Virus record (IMG/VR): IMGVR_UViG_3300032163_000012
Location: 726 to 64,725 of that record
DNA length: 64,000 nt
Direction: 5' to 3' (one strand)
DNA from: a virus
Lineage: Duplodnaviria; Caudoviricetes
Shown: one piece after another, positions 1 to 45,854 of the stretch
How positions within the stretch are numbered: position 1 is the first letter of the stretch
Layout: every line of letters begins with the position of its first letter
The notes under the pieces: generated by a model
The model's input: the letters and a program-made list of their open reading frames with translations, nothing else
Told to the model about the DNA's origin: nothing
Database searches by the model: none
Program-made: the position numbers and the translations under genes

Positions 1-335
1 GCCCTCATGTCAGCAGAAGGAGCGATGGTGCCGTAGACGAAATCAGCCACGTACTCGACGCCGCCCGGCAACATGAATCTCACCTGGCGCGCGAGGAAGT
101 CAATCTCGCCGGCCTTGAGTAGGAGCCCAAGCTCGCGGTAGCGCTTCGCCTCGCGCTTGGAATCGTGCTTCACGCCGTCGACAACGGTTTTCACGTTACC
201 GAACTTGGCCCGCCTCTTGGCGCTCCTGTCGAGCGCGGCCTTTGCACCAGGCCCCGCGATGTCGCGCAGCGTCGTGCGCCCGAACTTGGCCTGGTGCTTC
301 TTGTAGGCCGCCTCGTCCATGATGCGAGTGGCCAT
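1..335 (-). CDS. DUF1064-family putative endonuclease (3' end runs off the window)
   Basis: Manual translation from ATG 335 gives KFGNVKTVVDGVKHDSKREAKRYREL...QVRFML...YVADFVY; TAATG overlap with upstream gene. Confidence 0.8.
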   Translation of the reverse strand, partial: MATRIMDEAAYKKHQAKFGRTTLRDIAGPGAKAALDRSAKRRAKFGNVKTVVDGVKHDSKREAKRYRELGLLLKAGEIDFLARQVRFMLPGGVEYVADFVYGTIAPSADMR

Positions 336-700
336 TAGGCTTTCGCTGCGCGAAGTTTCTCGCGCTCCTTGTTGTGGTATTCAAGGAACTCGTGCAAGCC
401 TCCCAAAGTCATGTTCTCTGACTGCGTTATTTCGCCACCGGGAGACATGACCCAGTGTTCACCTTCTGGGTCGTTTAGGTCGAGCGTAATGGGGGCAGCC
501 CAACAACCTTGATGCGAGTGAGGGCGCCCTTTCTCGTCGTTGTCTGTCCATGTGGTATGCGTTATTCTGAACGCGCAGATTGGGCTTTTGATGACGTCGT
601 CACCAGAATATGGTCCTTCAGGATCCTCTGGGTCAACCAGCTCCACTATGTACCATCCGGCCGGCGCCGGCACCATCGTATGCGATATCGTTTCTCTCAC
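335..700 (-). CDS. hypothetical protein
   Basis: 3' part of ORF 335..931; GTG 700 overlaps the stop of the upstream HTH gene. Confidence 0.6.
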   Translation of the reverse strand: MRETISHTMVPAPAGWYIVELVDPEDPEGPYSGDDVIKSPICAFRITHTTWTDNDEKGRPHSHQGCWAAPITLDLNDPEGEHWVMSPGGEITQSENMTLGGLHEFLEYHNKEREKLRAAKA

Positions 701-870
701 GCCTTCGCTCCGTTGCGCAGCTTCGCCGGGCGCTTGGCCTTGTCTGGGATCATCCAGACCTTCCCAAACTTTTTGGCGCCTTTGATGCGCGGCGGCGTGG
801 TCGATGCCCATTGGCGAACACGCTGTTCGGACACGCGCCAGTTGGTTGCTGCCTGTTGAACTGTTATCAT
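697..870 (-). CDS. small excisionase-like/HTH_17 DNA-binding protein
   Basis: MITVQQAATNWRVSEQRVRQWA...GAKKFGKVWMIP, typical MerR-superfamily winged HTH pattern. Confidence 0.75.
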   Translation of the reverse strand: MITVQQAATNWRVSEQRVRQWASTTPPRIKGAKKFGKVWMIPDKAKRPAKLRNGAKA

Positions 871-889
871 CGTTAGCCCAAAATAATTG

Positions 890-918
890 TTGACATTGGT
901 CTTGCGCTTCCGCATTAT
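890..918 (+). promoter_or_regulatory. sigma70 promoter, rightward
   Basis: TTGACA(890-895)-17 bp-CATTAT(913-918). Confidence 0.65.
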
Positions 919-944
919 AGCGACATAGCAATACACGCTGTCAA
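914..944 (-). promoter_or_regulatory. sigma70 promoter, leftward, 19-bp spacer
   Basis: minus strand TTGACA(944-939)-19 bp-TATAAT(919-914). Confidence 0.6.
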
Positions 945-967
945 GCGTTTTTTGAGGGTTCCCGCAC

Positions 968-1327
968 ATGGCACAGAACAATGATGGCGATCTCGTCGGT
1001 GGCACCTTTGACCCAAAAACGCTGCCCGGCCTGGGCGCAGAGCGCACCACAGAGGAAGTCGTGGCGGACATCATCGCCAAGGATCCGGCTGCTCACGGCG
1101 TCGCGCTCGAGGAGCGCAATCGGAGAGCCAGGGCGCAGGCGCTTGATCTGTCCAACCTAACCGCCGACGATGCGCTGATTGTGTCCCTTGGCGGCGACCC
1201 TGAAGAAACGATGGGCGGCAATCGCCCGCGGTGGACGGTCGACGGCGACATCATCAAGGACCACGAAACAGGACAAGAGTGGGGCGTGATTGACGTGAGG
1301 GCGCGCGGCCAGGGCACGCAGCCATGA
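968..1327 (+). CDS. hypothetical protein
   Basis: first ORF after promoter; GAGG upstream; coupled to next gene. Confidence 0.65.
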   Translation: MAQNNDGDLVGGTFDPKTLPGLGAERTTEEVVADIIAKDPAAHGVALEERNRRARAQALDLSNLTADDALIVSLGGDPEETMGGNRPRWTVDGDIIKDHETGQEWGVIDVRARGQGTQP

Positions 1328-1530
1328 GCCTGCGCGAGCGCATTGCCAGGCGCCTGTTCGTCCTGGCGTCAAAAATTGGCGGCCAGGCCGAAGTCGAGCG
1401 CAGCGTGGAGCACGTGCGCACGATCCCGGGCGCCTCCCAGGTTGAGCAAGCGGCCGTGCGCCAGCGGGAACTGCTGGACATCGTAGAGAAAGCCAAAGAC
1501 GAAGGGATGTTTGGACATGAGCCTTTCTAG
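1324..1530 (+). CDS. hypothetical protein
   Basis: ATGA overlap, codon bias. Confidence 0.6.
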   Translation: MSLRERIARRLFVLASKIGGQAEVERSVEHVRTIPGASQVEQAAVRQRELLDIVEKAKDEGMFGHEPF

Positions 1531-1843
1531 GCGCGGGTTCCTGCGTGGCATGGCCGGTATCCTCGCGGCCGGTTTCGCGCCCGCCGTGATCGGCAGCGGC
1601 GTGCTCATGCCGGTGCGGAAGATCATCACGTCGACCAACCCACTGTTCGGCGGAGATCGTGGATTCTACGATGGGTTGCAGTGGGATGCTGATCAACTCG
1701 ATGCGTTGCGCCCGTACCCACAAACGATCACGCTAAACCAGATCAGAGATTGCAAGCGCATCCTGGAAAAGAAGCGCCTGCGGCCAGTCAGAATTAACGG
1801 CGAGGAATTTTACGTTGTGATTGATGGGCGGTTTAGCTCATAA
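1517..1843 (+). CDS. twin-arginine-motif protein with capsid-like segments
   Basis: MSLSRRGFLRGMAGILAAG N-terminus; NPLF and KKRLRPVRINGEEFY segments resemble the major capsid protein. Confidence 0.65.
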   Translation: MSLSRRGFLRGMAGILAAGFAPAVIGSGVLMPVRKIITSTNPLFGGDRGFYDGLQWDADQLDALRPYPQTITLNQIRDCKRILEKKRLRPVRINGEEFYVVIDGRFSS

Positions 1844-1844
1844 A

Positions 1845-2645
1845 ATGGCGATCGTAATTCGCCCGTCGTCGCTGCCTGGCTGGTCCGATTGCCAGTTAAG
1901 GACCGCCGCGCGCACGGCGCCGCAAATGTTCCTCGATCTCGGCTACGAGCTTCGCCAGTTGCCGCAGCGAGCAGGGCCGGCTATTGGCACAGCTACGCAT
2001 GCGGCTGTTGCTTTTACCATGCAATGCAAAATAGACACTGGCGAAAGCGCGAACCAGACCGAAACGGAACAGGCAGGGCTTGAGGCGCTCAGCAAGTCGA
2101 TAGAGCATGGAGTTGAATGGGATGGCGTATCGCCAAATTTCAACACGGCGCAGAAGCAGGTACTGCGCCACTACCGCGTGTTCCGGCTACACCTTGAGGA
2201 TGATCTTCGCCCACGAACGGTCGAGCGGAGGATCGAGAAACTGACGAAGCGCGGGAACACGCTCTCCGGCCAGCCAGACGTTACTGACGATGGTGTAATG
2301 GACCTGAAAACTGGCGTCGCCAAGCGCGTGAACGGCCAACAATATGGGGCGTATGCCCTATTGCTGCGCGCCGATGGCGATCCTGTCAGCCACATCACCG
2401 AGGACTACATCAAGCGCGTGGCGATCGACAAAGAACAGCCGCTGCCTGAGCAGATTCGTTACGACGTGGCGCTGTCAGAGCGCATTGCTGGGGCGACGAT
2501 CCTGGACATGGAGCGCAAGTTCGAGGAGTTTGAGCGTGATGGCGACACCATGATTTTCAGCGCAAACACGGGCTCGATGCTTTGCAGCGACCGCTGGTGC
2601 CTCGCGTTCAAGACTTCCGCTTGCCCAATGAGCGTGAACAAGTGA
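1845..2645 (+). CDS. PD-(D/E)XK (RecB/Cas4-like) exonuclease
   Basis: IRPSSL...C, GTATH, LSGQPD...DLKTG, QYGAY and C-terminal C..WC....C cluster. Confidence 0.8.
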   Translation: MAIVIRPSSLPGWSDCQLRTAARTAPQMFLDLGYELRQLPQRAGPAIGTATHAAVAFTMQCKIDTGESANQTETEQAGLEALSKSIEHGVEWDGVSPNFNTAQKQVLRHYRVFRLHLEDDLRPRTVERRIEKLTKRGNTLSGQPDVTDDGVMDLKTGVAKRVNGQQYGAYALLLRADGDPVSHITEDYIKRVAIDKEQPLPEQIRYDVALSERIAGATILDMERKFEEFERDGDTMIFSANTGSMLCSDRWCLAFKTSACPMSVNK

Positions 2646-3157
2646 TTATCCAGCTTACCCAAGGTTTCGTCGCGCACGTCGATGCAGATGATTACGACGC
2701 GCTGATGCACTTTTCCTGGTTCGCTACCCCGCGCAGAAAAAAATGGTACGCGCAAGCATGGGTGTTCGGTCAGCACGTTTATATGCACCGCTTCCTTATG
2801 GGTGAACCAACAGGAATTGAGATCGATCACAGAGACAACGACGGCCTCAACAATAGGCGCGGAAACATACGTCATTCGACTCGAACGCATCAAAACGCTA
2901 ACCGAATGAAGTTCCGGGGTAGATCGCGCTTCAAGGGCGTGTACCCTATGCGGTCAGGTAAATGGGCCACGCAGTCGGCGAAAGCTGGTAAGTATATCTA
3001 CATTGCATGCCATGAATCGGAGCAGGACGCGGCCCGTTGTTATAACGCGCTCGCGCGGTATCTGTTCGGTGAGCATGCGCTTTTCAACGACGTGACTCCG
3101 CGCTTCCCGGTTCGCTCGTTGGCCTTGCGCTATATAAATCGATGGGAAAAAAGATAA
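2642..3157 (+). CDS. HNH endonuclease with AP2 domain
   Basis: YMHRFLM...IDHRDNDGLNNRRGNIR, SRFKGV, AARCYN...FGEHALFN. Confidence 0.85.
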   Translation: MIIQLTQGFVAHVDADDYDALMHFSWFATPRRKKWYAQAWVFGQHVYMHRFLMGEPTGIEIDHRDNDGLNNRRGNIRHSTRTHQNANRMKFRGRSRFKGVYPMRSGKWATQSAKAGKYIYIACHESEQDAARCYNALARYLFGEHALFNDVTPRFPVRSLALRYINRWEKR

Positions 3158-3339
3158 TGGAATACATCCACCTTGTTGGCGCCGAGCAGGTTCAATCTGC
3201 CGGCGTGAGCATGCGCGGCGCTGCCGCCGACATGCAGCAGGCCGCTACGACCATCGATTCAGCGTTACAGCGGCACCAGCAATTCCTGGACGACTGGCTG
3301 CAGAGGCTGGCGCAGACCCTATCGGAGTATCGGCCATGA
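3157..3339 (+). CDS. hypothetical protein
   Basis: coupled ORF. Confidence 0.55.
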   Translation: MEYIHLVGAEQVQSAGVSMRGAAADMQQAATTIDSALQRHQQFLDDWLQRLAQTLSEYRP

Positions 3340-3683
3340 GCGAGGCCGAACTACTCAAGACGCTGGGCGAAACGAAGAAGGAAATGCAGTCGTCGCTGGC
3401 GAGCCTGATGGCGCTCCACGGAGCCCAGAAGGTGATGTTTGCGATGTCGCTGGTGAACGCGCCGAAGTTTATCTCGATGGCGAAAGAGGGCGGCATGTCC
3501 GATGAGTTGTCGTACATGCTCACTCAGCAGTTGCAGTTGATGCTGACCCAGTGGGGCCTGGCGGCCAAGTTTGACCATGAGGAAATGTACAAGCTGGCGA
3601 ATGGCATCCAGTCTCAAATGGCGTTGGTGGAGAACGATTTACAAGAGGCCGTGAACAGCGGCAATAACCCGAAGGAGAATTAG
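3336..3683 (+). CDS. hypothetical protein
   Basis: ATGA overlap, GGAG RBS. Confidence 0.65.
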   Translation: MSEAELLKTLGETKKEMQSSLASLMALHGAQKVMFAMSLVNAPKFISMAKEGGMSDELSYMLTQQLQLMLTQWGLAAKFDHEEMYKLANGIQSQMALVENDLQEAVNSGNNPKEN

Positions 3684-4787
3684 ATGGCGAACGAACAGAG
3701 AGAAACACGCTTGAAGGATCCTATGCAGGAAGTGCTGGACCCGCTCCAGTTCCACCAGGGCGGCGCAGATCTGGGTGCTGTCGTTCCGGCCGGGCAGTCC
3801 GGCATGGCGCGCGCCGGGAGCTTTATGACCGGCATGCAGGGCGACATCATCACGGCGCAGCGCGTCGGCGTGCCGCGCAACATGAGCCGGATCCTGGCCA
3901 ACATGAAGGCGCTGGCCACGGCCGCGGGCAAGGAGTACGTCTACGGCTGGGAAGTCAACGACCGGAAGAATAACCGGAAGGTGTGGATCGAGGGGCCGAC
4001 GATCACCCTCGCCAACGACCTCGCGCGCGAGTACATGAACTGCCAGGTGGATTGCCGCGTCATGGACGAGGGCAAGCATTGGGTGTTCTACGCGCGCTTC
4101 GTGGACCTGGAAACCGGATTCACGATGGTCCGGGCCTACCAGCAGCGCAAAGGCCAGGACACCGGCATGAAGGACGACCAGCGCAGCCTGGACATGGTGT
4201 TCCAGATCGGCCAGTCGAAGGCGATCCGCAATGTGGTTGTCAATGCGCTGCGCTCGCTTGTCAATTACGCCGTCGACGCGGCCAAGGGCTCGCTGCTGGA
4301 CAAGGTAGGCAAGAACCCGGAGGGCGCGCGCACGTGGATCAGGCAACAACTCAAGGACCTGGGCGTGGACATCAAGCGCGTCGAAGCGCTGTACGGCCGC
4401 ACGTCGGAACACTGGACGACGCCGGACATGGCGCGGATCTACACCGAATTGCAATCGATTACCGACGGCATGATGAATGCCGAGGACGTGTATCCGGTAC
4501 CGCAGAAGGAAGAAGCGGCCCGGAAGCGCGAGGACTCCAACCCGCTCGCCGGCAATCAAGGCCAAGGTGTGGGAACCGCTGGAAATGGTGCGTCGGCGGG
4601 CGGTGCGGAGGCTCCACCGATTGGCCAGCCGACCGGAACCGAGGGCTCCGAGCCAGCAGGCAAGCCGCCAGGTGACATGATGGATGACGCCGACGCTGCC
4701 CTGGGCGGAGGGACTAAAGCCGAGGCGCCTCCGGCGAAGAAAGTCGCGGGCAAGAAAAAAGCGAACCTGTTCGGCGGTGACGCATAG
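3684..4787 (+). CDS. putative single-strand annealing/recombination protein
   Basis: AAGGAG RBS; EGPTITLANDLARE...FVDLETG...SKAIRNVV core with disordered tail; function inferred from position between exonuclease and ATPase. Confidence 0.5.
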   Translation: MANEQRETRLKDPMQEVLDPLQFHQGGADLGAVVPAGQSGMARAGSFMTGMQGDIITAQRVGVPRNMSRILANMKALATAAGKEYVYGWEVNDRKNNRKVWIEGPTITLANDLAREYMNCQVDCRVMDEGKHWVFYARFVDLETGFTMVRAYQQRKGQDTGMKDDQRSLDMVFQIGQSKAIRNVVVNALRSLVNYAVDAAKGSLLDKVGKNPEGARTWIRQQLKDLGVDIKRVEALYGRTSEHWTTPDMARIYTELQSITDGMMNAEDVYPVPQKEEAARKREDSNPLAGNQGQGVGTAGNGASAGGAEAPPIGQPTGTEGSEPAGKPPGDMMDDADAALGGGTKAEAPPAKKVAGKKKANLFGGDA

Positions 4788-4789
4788 CC

Positions 4790-5269
4790 ATGGCAAGGCC
4801 GGCCCGCCCTTTGCGGGAACGCTTTTTTGAGAAGTTCCAGATTGGCGCTCCAGACGAGTGCTGGGAATGGACTCGCGCCAACAACAAAGGGTACGGCTCT
4901 ATTTGGGACAACGACAAGAACCGGATGGAGGAGGCGCATCGGGTGTCCTGGGAGATTCATCGCGGCCCGGTACCGGAAGGGGTGTGCGTGCTGCATAACT
5001 GCGACAACCCTCCATGCGTGAACCCGAACCACCTGTTTCTTGGAACGAAGTCCGACAACTCGAAGGATATGTATTCCAAGGGAAGGCACAACGTCGCGTA
5101 CCTCAAGGGCGAGCAACACCCAATGAGCAAATTGACCACCGCAGATGTGCTTGCACTCAGGGCTAGGCGCGAGGCTGGGGCGTCAAAACACGAATTAGCA
5201 GCCGAGTTTTTAATCACGCCCGATACGGCGTGGGAGATTTATACCCGCAGAACATGGAGACACGTATGA
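4790..5269 (+). CDS. HNH endonuclease
   Basis: CWEW...GYG...AHRVSWE...VLHNCDNPPCVNPNHLFLGT. Confidence 0.9.
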   Translation: MARPARPLRERFFEKFQIGAPDECWEWTRANNKGYGSIWDNDKNRMEEAHRVSWEIHRGPVPEGVCVLHNCDNPPCVNPNHLFLGTKSDNSKDMYSKGRHNVAYLKGEQHPMSKLTTADVLALRARREAGASKHELAAEFLITPDTAWEIYTRRTWRHV

Positions 5270-6960
5270 AAATTGTTGGGAAGGTAAGAGGATTCAGGGG
5301 GTGCGAGAAGGCCGATATTGAAATCGACAGGATCAGCCTCGTTTCTGGGCTCAATGGCGCCGGTAAATCGAGCCTGCTGCAGGCACTTGCTGCCGCCGCA
5401 TGCTCACAGCCGATACCGTTCTTTGTGTCGAATCGTCCGGATAAACCAGCCCTCACCAAGACGGACGGAAAGCTGTTGCTCAGGGGCGGCATGGAGAAAG
5501 GTTATGCCACCATCGCGGTTGATGGGCAGGTGGTGTCCGAGGCCGCATGGCCTGGGCTTACTTCCTCAGGCAACGGGAAACTGCAATGCAGCTTGGTGGC
5601 GGCCGGTCTGATAAATCCGCTCGAAATGATCGAAGCCGACCGGCAACGCTTCTTTGCCGGGCTGCTGAACGCCGACCCGACCATGGACGACCTCCGGGAA
5701 GCGCTCAAGGAGGCGATCCCGGCGCTCGCCGACCCGGATTACGTCGACGCCCTGGAGAAGGTCATTACCATGGCCCAGACGAACGGCTGGGACGTGGCGC
5801 ACAAGCACTTCAAGGAACACGGCGCCCGCCGCAAGGGCGAGTGGGAAGGGAAGGCCGGAGAGTCGTTCGGCTCGAAGAAGGCGGCAGACTGGAAGCCGCA
5901 GGGGTGGCGCGCCGACCTGGAGGAGAAAACCCTCGAGGAGTTGGGCACGGCGTGCACCGAGGCGCAGGCGGCCTTGGAGAAGGCGCTCGCCGACGTCGCA
6001 ACCGATGCCGCGGACCTGAAACACCTGTCCGAACTGTCCAGCGGCGAGGCCGTAGCCTGGAATGCGCTGAAACAGGCGGAAACGGCCCTGGAGGAGGCGC
6101 GCGCCGATTTGAAGGCCAAGGAGAACCAGAGGCAGGCGATCGTGATCCCCACCGCCATACCGTGCCCCCACTGCGGCGGTTTGGTCGATGTTGTCGGCGG
6201 CGGGCGCTCTTTCGTGCTCAAACAGTCGATGGCGAACGGGAAGGAGATCGAAACGGCCAAGAAAGCCTTCGAGGCGTCCACGGTGATGGTGCAGACGGCG
6301 CAAGCGGCCGCGGCGACGGCCCTGGATGTCTACAACGGCGCCAAGGGCGTGTACGAAGCGCACAAGGGCGCAGACGGCCGCCTGACCGAGGCCAGGAAGC
6401 GCAAAGGGACCACAGAATCGGTGGACACCGCCCGTGACTACCTCGCCGGGCTCACGCGCGACAAGGACCTGATCGAGCGGCGCCAAGCATGCGAAACGCT
6501 TGCCGCCCAGATTGGGGCAAACCAGAAGCTGGTCGATATCCTGTCGCCCGAGGGCCTGCGCCGGCAGAAGTTGCAAAAGGCGCTCAAGGTGTCGAACGGG
6601 CAGCTCGCCGCGCTCTCAAGCGATGCAGGCTACGGCACCGTGACGATCGACGACGACCTGGAAATCCTATACGGCGGGCGGCGCTACTTCCTCCTGTCCC
6701 AGTCCGAGCAGTACCGGGTGCGCGCGGTGATCCAGATCTACGTGGCGATGCACGACAAGTCGCCGCTGGTGATCTTCGATAGCGCCGACGTGCTCGACCA
6801 GGACGGAAGGAATGGCCTGTTCGCGCTCATGCAGGAAGTCGATGGCATCAGCTTCCTGGTGGGCATGACGGTGCTCTCCAAGAAGAACGTGCCGGATCTG
6901 GCCAAGGCTGGGCTCGGCGCGAGCTATTGGGTGGCCGACGGCACGGCGGCGCCGCTGTGA
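5266..6960 (+). CDS. Rad50/SbcC/SMC-like ABC ATPase
   Basis: Walker A GLNGAGKS, coiled coils with central CPHC hook, LSQSEQ signature, IFDSAD Walker B. Confidence 0.8.
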   Translation: MKIVGKVRGFRGCEKADIEIDRISLVSGLNGAGKSSLLQALAAAACSQPIPFFVSNRPDKPALTKTDGKLLLRGGMEKGYATIAVDGQVVSEAAWPGLTSSGNGKLQCSLVAAGLINPLEMIEADRQRFFAGLLNADPTMDDLREALKEAIPALADPDYVDALEKVITMAQTNGWDVAHKHFKEHGARRKGEWEGKAGESFGSKKAADWKPQGWRADLEEKTLEELGTACTEAQAALEKALADVATDAADLKHLSELSSGEAVAWNALKQAETALEEARADLKAKENQRQAIVIPTAIPCPHCGGLVDVVGGGRSFVLKQSMANGKEIETAKKAFEASTVMVQTAQAAAATALDVYNGAKGVYEAHKGADGRLTEARKRKGTTESVDTARDYLAGLTRDKDLIERRQACETLAAQIGANQKLVDILSPEGLRRQKLQKALKVSNGQLAALSSDAGYGTVTIDDDLEILYGGRRYFLLSQSEQYRVRAVIQIYVAMHDKSPLVIFDSADVLDQDGRNGLFALMQEVDGISFLVGMTVLSKKNVPDLAKAGLGASYWVADGTAAPL

Positions 6961-7639: not shown

Positions 7640-7921
7640 ATGGCAAACAGAGAACAGCGGCGCAGCCCGCTAGTCACGAACATGCTGCGCAAGATCGGCA
7701 TCGAGGAGGATGCGATCGAGGCAGCCTGGCCGCAGGTGCTGACGGCCTGCACCACGGTCCTGCAGAAGGCGCGCATGCAGGGCGTCGTCAACAACGGGCA
7801 CCTGATGGCGTTCGGTGGGTCGCTGATCGTGGATACGCTGTCACATGCGCCCGAGGCGGATCGCGCGCGCATGTTCGACGACTACGTGGCCGACCTGCGC
7901 AAGGAGATTGTTCCGGAATGA
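7640..7921 (+). CDS. hypothetical protein
   Basis: GGAGG RBS before ATG 7640. Confidence 0.65.
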   Translation: MANREQRRSPLVTNMLRKIGIEEDAIEAAWPQVLTACTTVLQKARMQGVVNNGHLMAFGGSLIVDTLSHAPEADRARMFDDYVADLRKEIVPE

Positions 7922-8565
7922 AAGAGTATCGGGTCAAGGTCTCCGTTCGGAACAACCTGCTGCTGTCAGCGATCGAGGCCGCCGGCTATGCGGAATACGG
8001 TGGGCTGGCTCGCTTTTGCAGAGAGAACGACATGGAGCCTAACGATTTGAGCGGGCTGATTTCAATGCGGCATCGCCCAATCAATCAGCACGGTGAATTT
8101 ATCCCTGCAGCGAAAACGATTATGGAGGCACTCGGCGCGTGCCCATCCGACCTGTGGGCCGACGAACAACTGATGATGAAATTGAAGCGCAACACCGGAG
8201 AAACGACGATGGACTTCGGCGCTGTGCAGGCGATGCTCGAACAGCACACTGAGGCTATGTCGCTTCCAAGCCCGGAGGATGTGTATGAGGCAAACGAGGA
8301 AACGAGATTGGTGAAGCAAGTGCTTCTTGGGAAGCACATCCCCACAGACGCTAGATCCGCATATAAGTTATCCACAAAAGAAATTGCCGTTTTAAGCATG
8401 CACCATGGGATCTCTGGAAATGATCCAAAAACTCTAGCGGAAATCGGGGCCGAGTTTGGCGTTACTCAAGAGCGGGTTAGACAAATAGAAGGGAGAGCCC
8501 TAAGAAAACTCCGCCATCCTTCAAACGCCGACGTGCTTAAAAAAGCCATGGTTGTTCCAGAATGA
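7918..8565 (+). CDS. HTH plus sigma-70 region 4 transcription regulator
   Basis: C-terminal KTLAEIGAEFGVTQERVRQIEGRALRKLRHPS closely matches RpoD region 4.2. Confidence 0.8.
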   Translation: MKEYRVKVSVRNNLLLSAIEAAGYAEYGGLARFCRENDMEPNDLSGLISMRHRPINQHGEFIPAAKTIMEALGACPSDLWADEQLMMKLKRNTGETTMDFGAVQAMLEQHTEAMSLPSPEDVYEANEETRLVKQVLLGKHIPTDARSAYKLSTKEIAVLSMHHGISGNDPKTLAEIGAEFGVTQERVRQIEGRALRKLRHPSNADVLKKAMVVPE

Positions 8566-8960
8566 CGGCCGTCATGCGCGCCTCGCCGCTGTTCGGTGAG
8601 CCCAAGCCATTCCTGACAGACATCTACCGCAAGCGCATGGTGCTGATGATGATCTGCACGCACTCAGACTGGTTCAGGAGCGACGACCTGGATTGGGTGA
8701 CGCGCAACTACCACGTGTGGGAGGCGTTCGAGCACGAGGCCAACAAGGTATGGGATCGAGGCCGGCGCCACTACAGCGCCCGCACGATCGGAGAGTACCT
8801 GCGCCACGAAAGCACGCTGCGCGAGGACGAGAACGAACACGGCTGGAAGATCAACGATCACGCCTGGCCGTCGCTAGCGCGCCTGTACGTGCTGATGTAC
8901 CCGGAGCGGTTCTGCTTCTTCGAGCGGAGGCCGGGAACGTCCGGGGTGCGCGCGCTGTGA
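8562..8960 (+). CDS. phage hypothetical protein
   Basis: ATGA overlap; NYHVWEAFE...HYSARTIGEYLRH...WKIND. Confidence 0.65.
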   Translation: MTAVMRASPLFGEPKPFLTDIYRKRMVLMMICTHSDWFRSDDLDWVTRNYHVWEAFEHEANKVWDRGRRHYSARTIGEYLRHESTLREDENEHGWKINDHAWPSLARLYVLMYPERFCFFERRPGTSGVRAL

Positions 8961-8963
8961 CTA

Positions 8964-8992
8964 TTGACGAAATTCCGACATCGGCGTACCGT
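8964..8992 (+). promoter_or_regulatory. sigma70 promoter for replication genes
   Basis: TTGACG-17 bp-TACCGT. Confidence 0.55.
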
Positions 8993-9162
8993 TGACCTGT
9001 CCGGGTGGTGCCTGGGCGCTCACGCAAGGAATCAAATTGAACCGTAGCAACAAGCAGTCCATCGGAGCGACAGCCGCACAGGCGAGTCGTGTTTTCTTGC
9101 GCGCGCCAGACCTGGGCAGGGTTCACCGCCTGCCAGCGGCTGTCCCTCGGATGGATTGAACT

Positions 9163-17874: not shown

Positions 17875-18350
17875 GTGCGCAACGCGAAGGAAAAGCCGGA
17901 GCCGAGGCCGATCACGGCGCAGGTGCCGGATTATTGCGCGCCGTTCGGTGTTGACCAGCGCGGGAAAGAGCACCAGCAGCAGTTCGGAGCGCGTGAAATG
18001 GTGTCGGATGGCGAGCGGACGCAGGCGCCAGGGTGCTATCGCAGGCTTCCGACGTGCGCGGACTGACACCTGTGGATAAGTCAAAAATTGGCGCGGAACC
18101 CCACGGAGGTACGCATGGTGAGGAATTGGCGGGGGCACTGCCGCCAGTGGTGGCGGGCGAGGCGGCCGCGGGCGCATTACCGGCTGCAGATGCGCCGGCT
18201 GCGCTCGAAGCGGACGTGCCCGGGGGTGCTGGCGGGCTTGACGCGGGGCGGGAAGTAGGTCTATCCTTGAATCGAGGGGCGCCACAAGCTGAGGGAGTTG
18301 GCACCGAGCCCAATGGCCGGGTTTCCGAGGCGGCGCCCATCACGAACAGT

Positions 18351-18426
18351 CGCGGGGTAGAGCAGTTGGCAGCTCGCCTGGCTCATAACCAGGAGGTCGC
18401 TGGTTCAAGTCCAGCCCTCGCAACCA
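18351..18426 (+). tRNA. tRNA-Met(CAT), initiator type
   Basis: 76-nt cloverleaf, C1:A72 mismatch, A11-U24 pair, loop CTCATAA, encoded CCA. Confidence 0.95.
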
Positions 18427-18595
18427 CGGATACACCAAGCGCGCGGCAACTGCAGCACCCAGGGGCGGCGGAAGCGGGGCCAGACACCGCGCGATCCGCC
18501 GACCCCTCCCTCGATCTTCCTCCCTGGCCATGGCCGTGCTCACCGCGAGCAGCGCCGGCGCCTTCCGGCCTATTTCCGCACCAGAGATTCGGCTG

Positions 18596-18859
18596 ATGAC
18601 TGCCTCGATTTCCTCGCTACCAATCTGGAAGAAGGACAGCACCCCGGCTGAGTGGCTGCAGGAGATCGCCACCATTGCGATGGAGCACCCGGAGCGCTTC
18701 GCACGCATCGTTGTCGTGTGCGAGGAAGAAAACAAGGAAGGGTTCCCGTACAAGACGCGCTTCTGGTCGCGTAATCACAAGACGAACACCGATATCATCG
18801 GCTCGCTGCAAGTGTGCGCGCTCGAGGTATTCGAATACATGAAGGGGCGCCGCGAATGA
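18596..18859 (+). CDS. hypothetical protein
   Basis: ATGA-coupled to terL. Confidence 0.6.
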   Translation: MTASISSLPIWKKDSTPAEWLQEIATIAMEHPERFARIVVVCEEENKEGFPYKTRFWSRNHKTNTDIIGSLQVCALEVFEYMKGRRE

Positions 18860-20458: not shown

Positions 20459-20704
20459 GTGAAAATCTTCGAACTCTCGATTGGCCAGGAAGATTACGCC
20501 AACATTCACGTGGCCAGGCTTACCATTCTCGACGTGTCGATCGCTATAGGCCACGGTCGCCGCTTCTGGTTCGTGTTCGAGTTCGACATCAACTGGGGCC
20601 ACGGTTTCTGTTTCTGTCGCGCTACATGGCCGAAGCGCATCCAGGGTGAAGCATTTCTCACCATGCTGGTGCGGCGCTTTGCGCCAGGCTGGATCCAATC
20701 GTGA
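20459..20704 (+). CDS. hypothetical protein
   Basis: fills terL-portal gap, GTGA-coupled to portal. Confidence 0.45.
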   Translation: MKIFELSIGQEDYANIHVARLTILDVSIAIGHGRRFWFVFEFDINWGHGFCFCRATWPKRIQGEAFLTMLVRRFAPGWIQS

Positions 20705-22839
20705 ACGCGCCGGCCAACTTCTTCCTCCCGAACCGCTACTCGTCGATCGAGCCCGGGCAGCAGATCGCTGGCGCCGACCCCTACGCCGATATCCGCAACC
20801 CCACCATGATGATGCCTGGCTGCCACAACCAGGATCTGATGCTCCTGATGATGGAGCGCTACCTCCGGGCCGACGCCGCCATGTCCTCGTGGGCCGAAGT
20901 CGCCAAGCGCTGCATCGATTTCTCCGAAGGTAAAATGTGGACCGCCGAGGAGCTGCAGAAGGCGGACGACGACGACCGTCCGCACCTGAACCTCAACAAA
21001 CTCGCCCCACTGATCCGCCTTGTCGTCGGCTACCACCGGCAGAACCGCATCGACAACCGTTTCCTGCCAACCGATGACTCGGCGAGCACGGAGGCGACGG
21101 CCGCGATCCTCACTAAGATCGTGAAACAGATCTCGATCAACAACAAGGAGCCCTATGTCGACACGGAAGTATTCCTCGACGGCATCCTTGGCGGCCGCGG
21201 CTACTACGACTGGCGCCTCGACTTCGAGAAAAACGACTTCGGCGAAACCAAAGGCGTCGCCAAGGACCCGTTCACGATCCGCCCGGACCCGGATGCGGAC
21301 ACCTACGATCCCAAGCTGTGGGGCTACGTGTTCGAGGGCCGCTGGTGGAACTTGGACGAGATCGAATTCACGTTCGGCAAGCGCGTGTCGCAACTGGTGT
21401 CGCCGCTGGTGGTTTCCGGCGGCTATCGCGGTGGTGTTCCTTCTGATATTCTGGATTTCGGTGAAGAACACACCCCGTGGCGCACTTTCGGGGGCCAGCA
21501 GTTCGGATCGTTTGCCTCTGGTTTCGGCTCCATCGAATCCTATATCTCATCTTCGGTGGATCCTTACCGGAAAAACATCCGGGTAGTCGATTGCCAGCAC
21601 TACCTGCGCGTGATGCAGCGCTGCATCGTGAACCTGGAGACAGGCGACCGCGAACCGATCCCGGAAATGTTCACCCGGCCGCAGATCGAGAAGATGATGC
21701 AGTGGGCGCTGATCGAGCACGTGTCGAAGGGCAATCCGTCCGGCACCTTCCCGATGCGCGTGGAGTGGCGCCCGATGAAGCGCGTGCGCTGGACCACCAT
21801 GATCGGCGATATCGTCGTCTACGACCAGTGGAGCCCATACGAGAGCTTCACCATCATTCCGTACTTCCCGTATTTCCGCCGCGGCAAGACGCGCGGCATG
21901 GTGGAGGACCTGATCGATCCGGCGCGCGAAGTGAACCTGCGGCGCTCGAGCCAGATCGACATCCTGACGCGCATCGCGCACTCCGGCTGGACCTGGGAGA
22001 AGAATTCCCTCGACGAGGAGGAGAAGATCAAGATCGAGGAGCACGGCGGCGCGGCCGGCCTCAACATCGAGTACAAGGGCCAGAGTCCGCCCGAGCGGAT
22101 CCAGCCCGGACAGATGCCCACCGGCATCGAGCGGCTTGAACAAGCCGCCACCCTCGACCTGAAAGAGATCGCCGGCATCAACGATTCGGCGCTTGGCCAG
22201 GTGGACCGCGTGCAGTCCGGACGCGCGATCGAGGCGCGCCAGAAGCAGTCCGTGCTCGGCCTCGAAATGTACATGGACAACATGAAGCGCACGAAGGACC
22301 TGTGCGGCGAGAAAAAGCTCGAAATCATCCAGAACCACTACACCGAACCGCGGATATTCAAGATCCAGGGCGATGGTGGCCTCTGGAACACGATCGGCAT
22401 CAACTCGCGCCAGGCCACCGGCGACATCCTGAACAACGTCACCGCCGGGCGCTACTCCCTGGCGATCGACGAAACCCCGCTTTCGGCCACCTTCATGGCA
22501 AGCCAGTTCGAGGAACTGACCAACATGATTCAGCTTGGCGTGGTGCAGTTGCCGATGGTGCAGGACATCGCCATCGACCTCTCCACCCTGCCGCAGAAGG
22601 AACTCATCAAGCAGCGCATGAACGCCTACCTGCGTGCGCAGGGGTTCATCACCGCGGACGAGCTGGTTGCCGCGCAGGCGGCCGGCGCCATGGTCAACCC
22701 GGCGCAGATCCAGCCACCCGGGCCTCCGCCAGGTGCGGGCAGCGCGCAAGGAAAACCCAACGCACCGCCGGAAGGTGGTAGCGTAGCACCAACAGCAGCA
22801 CCAGCTTTACCCGCACCAGCAGCAGCCATGGGAGCTTAG
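20701..22839 (+). CDS. portal protein, P22-like
   Basis: RPHLNLNKL, GMVEDLIDPAREVNLRRS, SGRAIEARQKQ; follows terL. Confidence 0.9.
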   Translation: MNAPANFFLPNRYSSIEPGQQIAGADPYADIRNPTMMMPGCHNQDLMLLMMERYLRADAAMSSWAEVAKRCIDFSEGKMWTAEELQKADDDDRPHLNLNKLAPLIRLVVGYHRQNRIDNRFLPTDDSASTEATAAILTKIVKQISINNKEPYVDTEVFLDGILGGRGYYDWRLDFEKNDFGETKGVAKDPFTIRPDPDADTYDPKLWGYVFEGRWWNLDEIEFTFGKRVSQLVSPLVVSGGYRGGVPSDILDFGEEHTPWRTFGGQQFGSFASGFGSIESYISSSVDPYRKNIRVVDCQHYLRVMQRCIVNLETGDREPIPEMFTRPQIEKMMQWALIEHVSKGNPSGTFPMRVEWRPMKRVRWTTMIGDIVVYDQWSPYESFTIIPYFPYFRRGKTRGMVEDLIDPAREVNLRRSSQIDILTRIAHSGWTWEKNSLDEEEKIKIEEHGGAAGLNIEYKGQSPPERIQPGQMPTGIERLEQAATLDLKEIAGINDSALGQVDRVQSGRAIEARQKQSVLGLEMYMDNMKRTKDLCGEKKLEIIQNHYTEPRIFKIQGDGGLWNTIGINSRQATGDILNNVTAGRYSLAIDETPLSATFMASQFEELTNMIQLGVVQLPMVQDIAIDLSTLPQKELIKQRMNAYLRAQGFITADELVAAQAAGAMVNPAQIQPPGPPPGAGSAQGKPNAPPEGGSVAPTAAPALPAPAAAMGA

Positions 22840-30392: not shown

Positions 30393-31541
30393 ATGGACCA
30401 GAACGCAGATACCACCAACACCGATACACCTGCCAAGGCTGCAATCGCGCAAGCCGCGGCCGAAGGTACTCCTCCTGGGGCAGCCGCTCCGGCAGAGTCG
30501 AGCGCAGCGGGGGCGGCCAAGACGGCGCCCGACAATCCGTTTGCGGCCGAGGACGCCGAACTGGCAGCGCTCGAGGCTCAGGCCAAGGCCGAACCGAAGC
30601 AAGGGGGCAAGGAACCGGAGAAGGGTGCTGTTGCTGCAGATGAACCGGGTGCGGGGAAAGAGTCAGGCACCGAGGCGGCCACTACGGCTACAGCGGCAGC
30701 AGGACATAACGCCTCCACAGCGGCCATCGTGGCACTGCGAAAAGCGAATTCGGAGTTGAAGGGCGCCTTGCTTGTCAAGGAAGGCGAAAATCGTGTGCTC
30801 AAGACGCTGGTTGACCCCGGGAAGTTCGCCGATGAGGCGGGCGGTACCCAGGCAGCGGCGGCGGAGATCGCGCCCGAGGAACAGGAATTGCAGGCTCTGG
30901 CAGCCGAGCGCGTCAGGATCGCCGAGGAAGTCGACGGCGGCCGGATGACGATGCGCGAGTATGCCGAAAAGACGAACGAGATCCAGGCGCGCGAGCGCAC
31001 GCTGGCTGCACTGCAGACGGAGCAGATCATCGCTGCGAACGCCCAGCCGGCCAACGATCTTGGTTTGCAGGAGCATGTGACCACCCTGGTCCAGAGATAT
31101 CCGATTCTCAATTCGTTGACAGCGGCCCAACTCAAGCCGTTCGAACAGATCGCTTACGAGCAAGCCACCATGGAGGGGAAACCCATTCAGGCCGGCCCGC
31201 TCGGAACCAAGGATTTGCGAGAGCGTATGGGTGCCTTGGCCACCAGAGTCTACGGTCAACCGGCGGCAGAAGGTGCGGCAACAGGCGGGACAGGTGTGGC
31301 GACTGGTTCAACGGTATCGGGGCAGCCAACGGCTGCGGAGCGCGAGGCGAAACTCACGCTTGCGGGGAATCACCCTCCGAATATCGGCGCTACAGGCTCC
31401 GGGGCTACCGGCGGCGAGCCATCAGAGGCTCAGGCAACAGCGGCCCTTGCTCAAGGCGAGGACGCGGCCATCCGTTGGTTAGAGTCAAACCCTGGTTTTG
31501 TCCAGAAGCAGATGGGGAAATCCGTCCGCTTGACACGCTGA
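30393..31541 (+). CDS. putative scaffolding protein
   Basis: acidic, Ala-rich, helical; directly upstream of capsid gene. Confidence 0.7.
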   Translation: MDQNADTTNTDTPAKAAIAQAAAEGTPPGAAAPAESSAAGAAKTAPDNPFAAEDAELAALEAQAKAEPKQGGKEPEKGAVAADEPGAGKESGTEAATTATAAAGHNASTAAIVALRKANSELKGALLVKEGENRVLKTLVDPGKFADEAGGTQAAAAEIAPEEQELQALAAERVRIAEEVDGGRMTMREYAEKTNEIQARERTLAALQTEQIIAANAQPANDLGLQEHVTTLVQRYPILNSLTAAQLKPFEQIAYEQATMEGKPIQAGPLGTKDLRERMGALATRVYGQPAAEGAATGGTGVATGSTVSGQPTAAEREAKLTLAGNHPPNIGATGSGATGGEPSEAQATAALAQGEDAAIRWLESNPGFVQKQMGKSVRLTR

Positions 31542-31558
31542 AAAAAAGGAACCAAGTC

Positions 31559-32677
31559 ATGGCACTTACCGACTTCGGCTCACTGACGGACATTCAGAAG
31601 AAGATCTACTCGCTCCACGTTTCCAAGCAGGGGCGCGACGACAACTTTTGGATGTCGAACGGGTTCATGGGTAATTCCACCGATGACACGTCAAAGCCGA
31701 TTCAGAAAATAACCGAACTCACCAAGACGGAAAAGGGAACCCAGGCGGTCATGCCGCTGATCGGGGACATTTCCGGCGGTGTGGTCGGCGACAACCTGCT
31801 CGAAGGAAACGAGCAACCCATCCTGGCGGACGCCCAGACCATCCAGATCGACCAGCTACGCAATGGCTGCCGGTCCAAGGGTCGGATGTCCGAACAGGCA
31901 ACAGTGATTCGCTTCCGGGTGCAGGCGCGCGATGTGCTCGCATTCTGGCTGGCGGACCTGATCGACGAACTGCTGTTCCTGGTGGCCGCTGGCCGCGCCT
32001 TCACGTTGAATACCGACGGGTCGACGCGCTCAACCAGCCAGATCCCATCGCTCGCCTTCGCTGGCGACGTGGCGGCAGCCTCGACGAACCGGATCATGTA
32101 CGCCGGTTCGGCAACATCGGAAAATACGATTACCACGGCTGACACCTGCACCTGGGATCTGGTGACCCAGGCGAAGGCGTTTGCCAAGCGTAAGCGCATC
32201 CGTCCGATCCGCGCAGGCGGCAAGTCCTACTACATCCTGGTGCTCTCGACCGAGCAGTGCCGCGATCTGGAAAAGACTTCCGACTACAAGGCGATTCAGG
32301 CGCAAGCCATGCCGCGCGGGATGGACAATCCGCTGTTCAACAACGCGAAGAAGGTCATCAACGAAGTCGTGATCTACGACCACCAGAAGGTGTTCAACAC
32401 CCTCGGTCTTGGTTCCGGCTCGCGTTGGGGCGCTGCTTCAACCGTCCACGGCGCTCAGGCTTTCCTGATGGGCGCGCAGGCAATGGGCTACGCAGCCCTG
32501 GACGACGGTACCCCGGGCATGGACGAGTCGGACAACACCGACTACGGCAACCGCCCCGCCCTGGGGATTCATCGCATCATCGGCATGCTCAAGCCACAGT
32601 ACAAGTCGAAATACGACGCCAACGCCCGCGAGGACTATGGCATCGTTTCGATCAAAACTGCAGCCGCGGCAAACTAG
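31559..32677 (+). CDS. major capsid protein, N4-gp56/DUF4043 type
   Basis: ITELTK...GDNLLEGNE...IDQLRN, RIRPIR..G..YY, DNPLF, FLMGAQA, DYGN, DYG. Confidence 0.9.
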   Translation: MALTDFGSLTDIQKKIYSLHVSKQGRDDNFWMSNGFMGNSTDDTSKPIQKITELTKTEKGTQAVMPLIGDISGGVVGDNLLEGNEQPILADAQTIQIDQLRNGCRSKGRMSEQATVIRFRVQARDVLAFWLADLIDELLFLVAAGRAFTLNTDGSTRSTSQIPSLAFAGDVAAASTNRIMYAGSATSENTITTADTCTWDLVTQAKAFAKRKRIRPIRAGGKSYYILVLSTEQCRDLEKTSDYKAIQAQAMPRGMDNPLFNNAKKVINEVVIYDHQKVFNTLGLGSGSRWGAASTVHGAQAFLMGAQAMGYAALDDGTPGMDESDNTDYGNRPALGIHRIIGMLKPQYKSKYDANAREDYGIVSIKTAAAAN

Positions 32678-44468: not shown

Positions 44469-45854
44469 ATGGCCATCAACTTCGCAAGCGCCCGCCCGGG
44501 CATTGACCTGTTCAACGCCAATGTGGCGCGCGACGACGCGCAGCGCAGGCAGGAGGAGCACGACTTCATGCTCCGCAGGCAGTACGAGCAGGCGCAGGGC
44601 GCGGACAAGGGCATGCGCAACGCAATCGCGGCCTACTATGCCCAGAAACAACCAGCGGCCGTGGCTCCGGTACCGACGACCGCTTTCCATCCGACGCCTG
44701 CCATGGTGCCAAATCCCGCCGCCACGACGCCGGTGGTGTCGCCGGACCAGTCGATGAACCCTGCCGACAACCCGGACTACGGTGGGCCGACCAGCTCCGC
44801 GCCGATGCCGAACGCCGTCCCGCGCGCCGGTGTCGACGTGCCCGCGACCGTTGCCGCGCCTCCCATGCCTGCCGCCGCAGCGGCGCCAGCGGCAGCGCAG
44901 CCAGCGCCAGGAGCGCGCCAGGGCGGCGGCTTCGGCACGATGATGGGTGAACTGGCGAAGCAACCCGGTACCGGCGCATCGATGATGTCCCTGTTCGGCA
45001 CAGACCTTGCGAGCCAGCGCTCCGCTGGTGTCGAACGAGCAAAGCTACACCAAGAGGGACTAAAACTATTCATGGATGCGTCGAAAAACGACGATGTTGC
45101 GTCGATGCGCGCCATTGCTGCGAAATACGACTTCGGTATTCCGCCAGAGGTTCTGAACAATCGTGCCGTGATGGCTAAAATCGCTTCCATGGCCAAGGTG
45201 GCGAAAACGATCGGGATCACGGATGACGAGCGTGCCCTTGGATTCGCCAAGGGATACATGCACGCAGAAGCGGCTGGCGCAGACCCAAACACTTCGTTTC
45301 AGGCCGCAATCGCCGAAGCTCAAAAGACGCAACCAACCTTCAAAGCGGTGCACTGGGATCAGACACCCGAGGGCGAGGTAACTGGGTTCGACGCGCAGGG
45401 AAACGCAAAAGCTACAGGAGTGAAAGGGAAACAGCAGAAATGGCAGGTTTTCGGTCCTGGTGGCGCCGGCGAAAGACCAACCGCGACGGTCCAGAACCGC
45501 GACGACATGGCGAAGCGCCTGAAAGTCGCATACCCGGGCCTGGACGATGGCGTTGTGCAGCGCCTAGTGGTCAACCCGCGCGCCCAGATTACCGCACAGG
45601 ACATTATGCGCACCGAGGCGAGCATGCGCAAGCTCACCAACATGGGTCGCCCGCTCTACAAGACTGACGCCGAGGCGCACACCGCAGCCGTGGCGGCCGT
45701 TCGCGCCGCGCAGCGCGATGCTGGCGTGCTTGTCGGTGGGGAGGGCGCGCCTGGTGCTACAGCGCCTGGCCCTGCGGACAGCGGACCAGCCGGGCGCGTG
45801 CCGCCGCCGGTGCGCATGCGCTTTGACTCGAGTGGAAATGAGATCTCGCAATGA
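44469..45854 (+). CDS. putative ejection protein
   Basis: helical, Pro/Ala-rich; coupled to giant gene. Confidence 0.6.
   Translation: MAINFASARPGIDLFNANVARDDAQRRQEEHDFMLRRQYEQAQGADKGMRNAIAAYYAQKQPAAVAPVPTTAFHPTPAMVPNPAATTPVVSPDQSMNPADNPDYGGPTSSAPMPNAVPRAGVDVPATVAAPPMPAAAAAPAAAQPAPGARQGGGFGTMMGELAKQPGTGASMMSLFGTDLASQRSAGVERAKLHQEGLKLFMDASKNDDVASMRAIAAKYDFGIPPEVLNNRAVMAKIASMAKVAKTIGITDDERALGFAKGYMHAEAAGADPNTSFQAAIAEAQKTQPTFKAVHWDQTPEGEVTGFDAQGNAKATGVKGKQQKWQVFGPGGAGERPTATVQNRDDMAKRLKVAYPGLDDGVVQRLVVNPRAQITAQDIMRTEASMRKLTNMGRPLYKTDAEAHTAAVAAVRAAQRDAGVLVGGEGAPGATAPGPADSGPAGRVPPPVRMRFDSSGNEISQ

Follow-up and report, generated by a model that had tools for sequence, protein, structure and literature searches.

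The gene described here lies at positions 1517-1843 (+) of a 64,000-bp stretch of phage DNA (Duplodnaviria; Caudoviricetes), hereafter the window, which corresponds to bases 726-64725 of the 64,725-bp virus record IMGVR_UViG_3300032163_000012. Its 108-aa product, P0001, combines an N-terminal twin-arginine leader found in hundreds of homologues with a C-terminal tail whose short pieces resemble virion proteins, among them the major capsid protein (MCP) of the same phage. P0001 appears to be a real, selected and optional early gene product. The descriptive part of this reading, a leader family with a mosaic virion-like tail carried on an accessory insert, is very likely to be correct (roughly 0.85). 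The favoured explanation of its function is much more tentative (about 0.3) and follows the example of Sp, Imm and RI of T4. Tethered in the envelope, P0001 may mimic virion surfaces and thereby intercept components of related phages that superinfect the cell.

The original prediction was built on a gapless alignment between P0001 and the MCP, and this alignment is well supported. Residues 70-102 of P0001 align with MCP residues 224-256 with 10/33 identical and 21/33 positive residues (E 4e-6 in BLASTP, as a single pairwise comparison). The ungapped score of 69 was reached by none of 5000 composition-preserving shuffles of the tail (mean 26.6, standard deviation 3.85, maximum 59), and Gumbel extrapolation gives a probability of 4e-7. 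When the whole window was searched in six frames with tblastn, the MCP segment was the best non-self match of P0001 (E 2e-4), and the next match was at 0.43. The comparison of the tail with a profile of eight MCPs from the clade by hhalign gave a probability of 89.1% and an E-value of 2.3e-6. Because the tail scores 56-70 across 13 MCPs of the clade and 69 against its own MCP, the likeness appears to be to a clade-wide conserved segment, not to the own copy in particular. The MCP gene is 30 kb away from the target gene, as originally stated.

At the DNA level, only 44 of the 99 bases are identical between the two segments, and differences are seen at all base types. The virion resemblance of the tail is confined to the protein level. 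A recent copy of the MCP segment was rejected on this basis. The origin by a diversity-generating retroelement (variable region/template region, VR/TR) was also rejected, as the differences show no adenine-specific pattern; no reverse-transcriptase family was found among the 66 window open reading frames (ORFs) scanned. P0001 keeps 6 of the 13 MCP residues of this stretch that are invariant in the clade; in the tail they are K80, K86, R87, P90, G95 and Y99. Since these residues are kept at near-random DNA identity, the tail probably works through its likeness to virion proteins.

P0001 showed no significant match to general capsid profiles; phrog_334 was reached at E 0.27 over 33 residues, and no Pfam or NCBIfam capsid model matched. 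It appears to be a fragment-like copy and not a member of the N4-gp56/Phage_capsid_3 family (PF13252, TIGR04387, phrog_334). No MCP was found at E<=1e-3 in an exhaustive phmmer search of the tail against 1.84 billion representatives. The second match of that search, P0024 (571 aa, repetitive), was rejected as chance, its score being inflated by five repeats. Among PDB sequences, the best match of the tail was a chance match to RuBisCO (E 1.1). For the MCP itself, a solved relative exists (26de_S, E 2.9e-88). The AlphaFold2 model of the MCP, made with eight close sequences, has a predicted local distance difference test score (pLDDT) of 36.7 and includes a helix (199-211) and two strands (217-229 and 265-274). 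The P0001 model, also of low confidence, includes a hairpin (49-56), a helix (73-86) and a second hairpin (91-98), and the secondary structures of the two models agree. The elements of this piece would belong to the A-domain of the HK97 fold, as judged from general knowledge of the fold and from Andreas and Giessen (2021, PMC8346489). According to the same study, the two main A-domain helices are subunit interfaces of the HK97-fold pentamer.

The whole tail appears to be a mosaic of three short pieces, namely an NPLF capsid strand, a portal N-terminus, and the MCP A-domain helix and strand. An echo of the NPLF motif had been claimed before. Against the own MCP it is a four-residue echo with a score of 23, not significant alone, but relatives back it. 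With the MCP of a different phage, G004, the motif reaches a score of 41 (7/16 identical), and the G004 family member matches the G004 MCP at the NPLF motif (E 8.5e-4 to 2e-3). Piece 1 is also homologous to the stretch of P0042 that matches positions 252-275 of Pfam Phage_capsid_3 (E 0.011). The swapped order of the two capsid-like segments holds, as NPLF lies past the helix-strand segment in the MCP.

Piece 2 is common to P0001, P0004, P0008, P0025, P0104 and others. In relatives, it matches positions 16-60 of Pfam P22_portal (PF16510; P0104 at 1e-5, P0004 at 3.1e-4). P0001 itself has no direct match to the P22-type portal profiles (PF16510, phrog_156). A leave-one-out hidden Markov model (HMM) from eight piece-2 carriers detects P0001 at E 5e-8. 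Among the other 1166 window ORFs, this HMM ranks the own portal first, at only E 0.08; the match falls in the N-terminal region of the portal, to which positions 16-60 of Pfam P22_portal correspond. Residues 59-100 of P0001 also match G004 8893-9009 (-), which encodes the N-terminus and Walker-A region of the large terminase (E 0.003). The G004 terminase ORF is of the P22 type and matches PDB 4dkw 'Large terminase protein' at 1.8e-45. Because this terminase-like match overlaps both the portal-like and the MCP-like pieces, the source of the middle piece appears ambiguous.

The leader has the features of a twin-arginine translocation (Tat) signal. The SRRGFL N-terminus and the hydrophobic stretch of the original prediction are both present. 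Residues 4-10 (S-R-R-G-F-L-R) fit the Tat consensus (S/T)-R-R-x-F-L-K, and the maximum Kyte-Doolittle mean over 19 residues is 1.89. The E-values of P0001 are 0.053 for Pfam TAT_signal and 0.063 for NCBIfam TIGR01409. The TIGR01409 cut-off is passed by 20 of the 122 members scanned; the Pfam Tat model (PF10518) gave sub-threshold matches in 27 of 121 members, and none pass. RR is the majority state among the 148 family members compared. Twelve leader positions are at least 94% conserved in these 148, in the pattern (A)(G)ILA(A)G(F/V)APA(A/V)(I/V)GSG(V/I)LMPV(R/K), a conservation owed in part to how the members were found. Proline is present seven residues past the conserved LMP proline in 73% of them.

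Host proteins carry very similar signals. The genome scan returned mostly long host ORFs (364-437 aa) from Rhodocyclales and Burkholderiales (genome and metagenome loci L029-L043 and L083-L101). Their Tat signals are nearly identical to the n- and h-regions of the phage leader, reading AGILAAGVAPAV followed by HAQ. N-termini of the form RRxF...AG(M/I/L)AGILAAGVAPAVHAQ were seen in 12 of the 13 ORFs listed in one scan and 8 of 15 in another. By eye, the host ORFs with look-alike signals resemble TRAP-type solute-binding proteins. It is possible that such host ORFs were the source of the phage leader. The phage leader corresponds to a genuine host Tat signal up to the end of the h-region, past which a conserved IGSGVLMPVRK takes the place of the V-H-A-Q cleavage box. 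No A-x-A site is seen past the h-region; APA is followed by (A/V)(I/V)GSG(V/I)LMPVRK, whereas the host look-alikes end in V-H-A-Q. Because the conserved IGSGVLMPVRK stands in place of the cleavage box, an uncleaved signal anchor is plausible, and the membrane tether suggested earlier is plausible with it. Among ESM Atlas neighbours, which provide a lead only, there are viral hypothetical proteins, small Tat-signal subunits, and a Rieske Tat-signal domain at 0.83.

What is conserved in the leader is the peptide, which is under protein-level selection, because synonymous differences exceed non-synonymous ones. Summed over the 36 pairs of nine leader genes, 341 synonymous and 215 non-synonymous codon positions differ. 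The leaders of the window and L002 show 13 synonymous differences versus one non-synonymous difference. On the strength of this synonymous divergence, the alternative that a DNA site is conserved was rejected. A leader-like sequence, LAAILAAGVAPAVVGG, without the twin arginine is also seen in the N-terminal extension of a full-length major head protein at L009 9968-11158 (+) (phrog_264, 3.2e-75, profile match from residue 62), whose true start codon is uncertain.

Proteins with this leader form a very large family, which, like the portal-like piece, the clade-wide match and the exchange of the MCP-like end described below, goes beyond the original prediction. A single-sequence search found 22 proteins, in which the first ~35 residues are the common part and the C-termini are unrelated. 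With a leader-family profile, 8000 candidates of 43-266 aa were scored, and at least 537 of them reached E<=1e-3. Further members were taken from viral, genome and metagenome contigs. When viral contigs were scanned again with a pattern back-translated from the leader, five loci were obtained, two of them new. There is exactly one leader gene per record in 5/5 viral records checked. The hosts of the family are probably Betaproteobacteria. Source annotations include only 'hypothetical', 'Uncharacterized protein' and 'twin-arginine translocation signal domain-containing protein [Ramlibacter sp.]', and no description of such genes was found among the titles and abstract openings searched. Neither P0001 nor P0047 matched any of 50,697 phage records in tblastn, where the low-complexity filter may hide the leader, and window 1-6000 had no match in the same records by megablast.

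Where the tails can be annotated, they appear to be named solely as capsid or portal across three profile libraries. In PHROGs, 151 members gave nine matches at E<=0.01. Major head protein families account for five of them (P0007, P0018, P0061, P0062, and P0081), portal families for two (P0104 and P0092) and families of unknown function for the remaining two; no other annotated category is represented. The non-Tat Pfam matches at E<=0.011 among 121 members were P22_portal (P0104, P0004), Major_capside (P0061, 4.3e-4) and Phage_capsid_3 (P0042, 0.011). NCBIfam matches were capsid_maj_N4 (N4-gp56, TIGR04387) for P0007 (1.8e-5) and P0018 (4.7e-4), and capsid_maj_Podo for P0081 (7.6e-3). All of these matches are short and under the family cut-offs. 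The tail-bearing proteins appear to be fragments and not members of the capsid or portal families.

Annotation-blind searches of the tails against their own genomes were made in eight records searched whole, and the best non-self match was taken. An own virion gene was the best match at E<0.01 in three of them. It was the MCP in the window (E 1.6e-4 to 2e-4), the MCP in G004 (E 8.5e-4 to 2e-3; phrog_334, 2.3e-96), and a 2207-aa virion structural protein in G002 (E 3.6e-3; phrog_19691, 7.3e-30). In G005, the best match was a 504-aa ORF of no known family (E 0.025 to 0.047); its by-eye assignment as a tail fibre was dropped, as it has no PHROG match. No match was found in G001, G003, G011 and G012, whose completeness is 55%, 92%, 43% and 61%, respectively. 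Twenty control searches of tails against foreign genomes gave 0.003, 0.010 and otherwise at least 0.063. The control match at 0.003 is that between the window tail and the N-terminus of the G004 large terminase. Own-locus tests within 10 kb on either side at nine loci gave nothing below E 0.07; the structural genes are mostly outside those flanks.

The tail itself is modular. The DNA of L044, which encodes P0003, is ~93% identical to the window from the leader to position 1757, and the L044 ORF stops two codons past this breakpoint. Because the L044 DNA is unrelated beyond it, the MCP-like last 28 aa appear to be a separately exchanged module. The original prediction had been staked on capsid-profile matches and on conservation of the segments in homologues. 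General capsid profiles do not match P0001 significantly and L044 is without the MCP-like end, which speaks against part of that prediction. The clade profile matches the tail at the E-value given above. In the tail part common to the window and L044, there are nine synonymous and three non-synonymous codon changes, while the leaders differ by five and six. Within subfamilies, the tail appears to be under purifying selection.

The gene is accessory. The window phage has 12 MCP relatives at 65-85% identity. The leader gene was found in none of five close-relative records searched, two of which are complete with terminal repeats, whereas the same query found the gene in 5/5 positive records. In two relatives, G006 and G007, the homologue of the upstream gene (77 and 117 aa, respectively) directly adjoins the homologue of the PD-(D/E)XK-like gene, so the target gene appears to be a ~330-bp insert, or to have been lost by the relatives. 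No DNA counterpart of window 1745-1850 was found in five relatives. The absence of the gene from all five close relatives shows that this capsid can be built without it, and the idea of an assembly regulator, put forward earlier, is weakened. An optional accessory gene would fit a role in conflict better than a core role in assembly.

The features of the window that bear on these points are listed in Table 1. The gene appears to be the third in a tightly packed rightward early operon, because its start overlaps the stop of the upstream gene, a 1-nt gap separates it from the downstream gene, and a promoter match lies ahead at 890-918. The gene junction is not an assembly artefact of the record, because a Logan contig from the probable source sample, which is a separate assembly but not an independent sample, covers 1300-2300 with 0 differences at depth 23. 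Sequencing runs except X1 contained parts of this stretch only, and none of the listed runs was an RNA dataset containing it. At other loci, the family gene is found in the replication/recombination region with no constant neighbour. It is directly behind a Holliday-junction resolvase gene in three of nine loci (L004, L006, and L028) and one gene further in L003. It lies ahead of Q-like, ParB-methylase or terminase genes, several times within a few kb of terminase.

Table 1. Coordinates in the window of the target gene, its parts, its neighbours and the virion genes compared.
Feature	Position	Strand	Remarks
Sigma-70-like promoter match	890..918	+	TTGACA-17-CATTAT, 10/12; consensus match only; ahead of rightward early operon
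Upstream early gene, 68 aa	1324..1530	+	conserved in relatives; stop 1528-1530 overlaps target-gene start
Target gene (P0001), leader and mosaic tail	1517..1843	+	ATG 1517, TAA 1841-1843; alternative start TTG at 1511; ~330-bp insertion versus close relatives
Leader, residues 1-35	1517..1621	+	twin-arginine n-region (SRRGFL), Gly/Ala-rich h-region, conserved GSGVLMPVRK end without A-x-A; from Tat models, host signals, synonymous divergence and conservation
Tail piece 1, residues 39-56 (STNPLFGGDRGFYDGLQW)	1631..1684	+	resembles NPLF strand motif of N4-type (Phage_capsid_3) capsids; link of P0001 rests on relatives
Tail piece 2, residues 49-78 (GFYDGLQWDADQLDALRPYPQTITLNQIRD)	1661..1750	+	resembles N-terminal motif of P22-type portals; weak match for P0001 itself
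Tail piece 3, residues 70-102	1724..1822	+	copy-like match to MCP A-domain helix and strand; from BLASTP, shuffles, tblastn and hhalign
Recombination breakpoint within tail	1757..1758	.	DNA ~93% identical to L044 up to here, unrelated beyond
Downstream early gene, PD-(D/E)XK-like (weak evidence)	1845..2645	+	conserved in relatives; ATG 1845 is 1 nt past P0001 stop; label from PADLOC DruK PD-(D/E)XK model, E 0.0015
Portal gene	20701..22839	+	phrog_156, E 2.9e-91; N-terminal stretch ~20920-21063 is the counterpart of tail piece 2
MCP gene	31475..32677	+	Pfam Phage_capsid_3, E 1.6e-37; phrog_334, E 3e-73; 32144-32242 is the counterpart of tail piece 3; DNPLF from 32324

In the favoured explanation, the leader would take the tail to the Tat translocon. 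As it shows no A-x-A cleavage site, it would probably remain in the inner membrane, anchoring the protein by its N-terminus and exposing the tail to the periplasm. There, the tail would present copies of virion-protein surfaces at an early stage of infection and bind a partner that normally docks on such surfaces. The favoured partners are the proteins or DNA that a related, superinfecting phage ejects into the envelope. By binding them, the tail would prevent or sense a second infection, in the manner of Sp, Imm and RI of T4. The envelope location is likely to be functionally important, given that no other part of the protein is as conserved as the leader.

Several observations weigh against this explanation. 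Capsid, portal and terminase stay out of the periplasm during infection, and an envelope partner for mimics of them is for this reason a conjecture. The P0001 leader is under both curated Tat cut-offs (13.9 versus 22.7 bits in Pfam, and 13.7 versus 16.7 in TIGR01409). The 148 tails, with a median of 72 aa, form 86 BLASTP clusters including 71 singletons, and most have no recognisable source. Named tails are a minority, and none of the 29 locus-derived members has a structural PHROG match at E<=0.05. The own-genome test is negative in four of the eight records, with G005 borderline. The sole close homologue, P0003, is without the MCP-like 28 aa, and that module may be dispensable. The single-sequence AlphaFold2 prediction for P0001 is uninformative (pLDDT 37.8).

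A rival explanation holds that the likeness is a matter of history only. A portable leader would have acquired its tails by in-frame capture and shuffling of scraps of the phage's own genes, and the tails would then serve unrelated envelope functions, or the leader alone would be active. The number of tail types, the breakpoint within the tail, and the very short members (tails of 4 to 24 aa) agree with such a history. Several loci are only a few kb upstream of terminase, where nearby late genes would be handy donors, and profile libraries find capsid and portal fragments more readily than fragments of poorly conserved genes. In the window, however, the MCP gene is far from the target gene. 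The similarity persists at ~44% nucleotide identity and on residues invariant in the clade, the tails are under purifying selection within subfamilies, and the annotation-blind searches reach the MCP in two genomes although it takes up an estimated ~2% of the coding capacity of each. History alone is a rather doubtful account, if a serious one. That the resemblance is due to chance, or that the gene is not real, is largely refuted and very improbable. The pair was picked by eye among many possible pairs and P0001 has no significant match to general capsid profiles, but the match is significant after correction for the whole window, in shuffles and in hhalign, and hundreds of homologues with a selected leader, the purifying selection on the tail, and the tight operon packing argue for a real gene.

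The main rival to the envelope-tethered mimic places the target in the host. The tail, with its copies of capsid, portal and perhaps terminase pieces, would bind abortive-infection sensors without firing them, and the leader would tether or export the complex by Tat hitch-hiking. The source proteins (capsid, portal, and one weak terminase-like match) are of the classes that trigger Avs, CapRel and Lit, and an accessory gene in an early operon with lineage-matched tails suits such a decoy. A precedent at the level of a hypothesis is given in the Bodo saltans virus study (PMC5871332). Nevertheless, this decoy is unlikely. The export leader, as the most conserved part of the protein, fits poorly with a target in the cytoplasm; a mimic that copies a trigger faithfully should itself fire the sensor; and Avs-type sensors read whole folds, not 30-aa pieces. 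None of seven family members matched PADLOC-DB defence models at E<=0.1. A dominant-negative assembly poison is less probable still. Here, copies of the A-domain helix and strand and of the portal N-terminus would act in the cytoplasm, capping growing capsomers or portals that belong to a related, co-infecting phage. The pentamer interfaces formed by the A-domain helices (PMC8346489), the agreement of piece 3 with a helix and strand of that region in two low-confidence models, and the clade-wide conservation of the segment, by which relatives would be affected, are consistent with it. However, the own MCP has the same segment and would be poisoned too, and an export leader would take the protein away from the site of assembly.

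Known systems share parts of this organization. Tat signals, including uncleaved anchors such as that of the Rieske Fe-S protein (PF10518, TIGR01409, PF10399), have in common with the phage leader the RRxFL motif and a Gly/Ala-rich, moderately hydrophobic h-region, followed by proline and basic residues. The phage leader differs in having no A-x-A site and in being far more conserved than usual signal peptides, including the GSG(V/I)LMPVRK behind the h-region. It is found only on small proteins, and the evidence for this is weak: no proteins of 190-2000 aa with leader residues 1-40 were found. Sp, Imm and the RI antiholin of T4 are small early envelope proteins acting on superinfecting phage. 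At ~80-100 aa, they begin with a signal or a weakly hydrophobic anchor, and the remainder lies in the periplasm, as proposed for P0001; they act on components of same-kind phage and are dispensable in the laboratory. They differ from P0001 in that there is no sequence relation, in that they use Sec or signal-arrest-release (SAR) sequences and not Tat, and in that they are neither made of virion-protein pieces nor a hypervariable family. Such a function for P0001 is conjecture. The internal-protein locus of T4 with its capsid-targeting sequence, polymorphic toxins, and leader-peptide systems likewise combine an N-terminal trafficking module with exchanged C-terminal modules and have breakpoints between them. 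In these cases the trafficking route is another one, whereas the tails of the P0001 family are not toxins or known effectors and the gene is single copy per genome in the viral records checked.

In Bodo saltans virus, fragments of essential genes are fused to ankyrin repeats, and the authors propose that the products are decoys for host defence (Deeg et al. 2018, eLife, PMC5871332). Like the leader family, these proteins combine a conserved module with fragments of the virus's own essential genes, in an expanded and variable family. That virus is, however, a eukaryotic giant virus, a binding domain and not an export leader serves as the conserved module, catalytic domains supplied the fragments, and the decoy role is likewise hypothetical. 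A stand-alone A-domain of the HK97 fold is known from the Family 4 'A-domain encapsulins' (PF08967/DUF1884, PDB 2PK8), of ~100 aa (Andreas and Giessen 2021, PMC8346489). These comprise the whole A-domain (two helices and a four-stranded sheet), are cytoplasmic, and are encoded in enzyme operons of thermophiles. The 72-aa tail of P0001 would comprise no more than a single helix with one or two strands. Their order is swapped, a portal-like piece is mixed in, and an export leader precedes them. PF08967 was not found in P0001 at E<=10, nor in 121 relatives at E<=0.05 in the Pfam search.

An unlikely, wider version of the mimic idea is that self-mimicry is widespread in phages of Gram-negative bacteria. 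A portable Tat leader would carry exchangeable 'epitopes' of the phage's own capsid, portal, fibre or perhaps terminase, which would capture host sensors or rival-phage proteins before the late proteins appear, with the leader tethering or expelling the partner. If true, this self-mimicry would be the bacterial-virus counterpart of viral decoy substrates and, within phage-host conflict, the first disposal route through the Tat pathway. Should the tails be mimics at all, they would represent a new and very common use by phages of copies of their own virion proteins in conflicts with other phages or with hosts, and together they would amount to a natural catalogue of those virion surfaces that are important in such conflicts. 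Even if the likeness is historical, the family would display gene birth in the open, where an export module acquires in-frame scraps of resident genes that are then kept by selection.

Other members of the family show further variants of the tail. L049 66-458 and L050 10001-10402 encode a tail in which two capsid-like motifs are seen by eye, GELGVIEGMRFITS and then RLIMVVHPEESEAW, in swapped order as in P0001. This tail has no PHROG match at E<=0.05, and the MCP of these phages is outside the DNA searched. The by-eye motif classes for L049/L050, L054, L061 and others (coat N-arm, terminase nuclease, 'GDxFTIxG', and 'LMDN') were left unconfirmed, as the locus-derived members gave no structural PHROG match. 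Three members are nearly tailless: L062 1794-1895 with a tail of 4 aa, and L074 143-304 and L080 942-1103 with 24 aa each. They hint either at decaying copies or at a leader that is functional alone.

Profile scans of the window also identified a large terminase, an endolysin, three HNH endonucleases, and a 4436-aa DarB-like protein. The genome layout is reminiscent of Bcep22-like podophages. The HNH endonuclease genes are at 2582-3157 (+), 4790-5269 (+) and 62240-62857 (-) and belong to families phrog_99, phrog_1872 and phrog_374; two of the three are within 3.5 kb of the target gene. The DarB-like protein is encoded by a single ORF at 45851-59161 (+), which matches the antirestriction family phrog_10089 (2e-73) and includes lysozyme-like and methyltransferase-like stretches. 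It is presumably a giant protein that is packaged and ejected. A 215-aa ORF at 7918-8565 (+) resembles at its C-terminus the RNA polymerase sigma factor family phrog_351 (5.2e-15). A tRNA-Met gene (CAT) at 18351-18426 (+) is located just upstream of the large terminase gene and is enclosed by an ORF on the minus strand (18340-18753) for which no family was matched.

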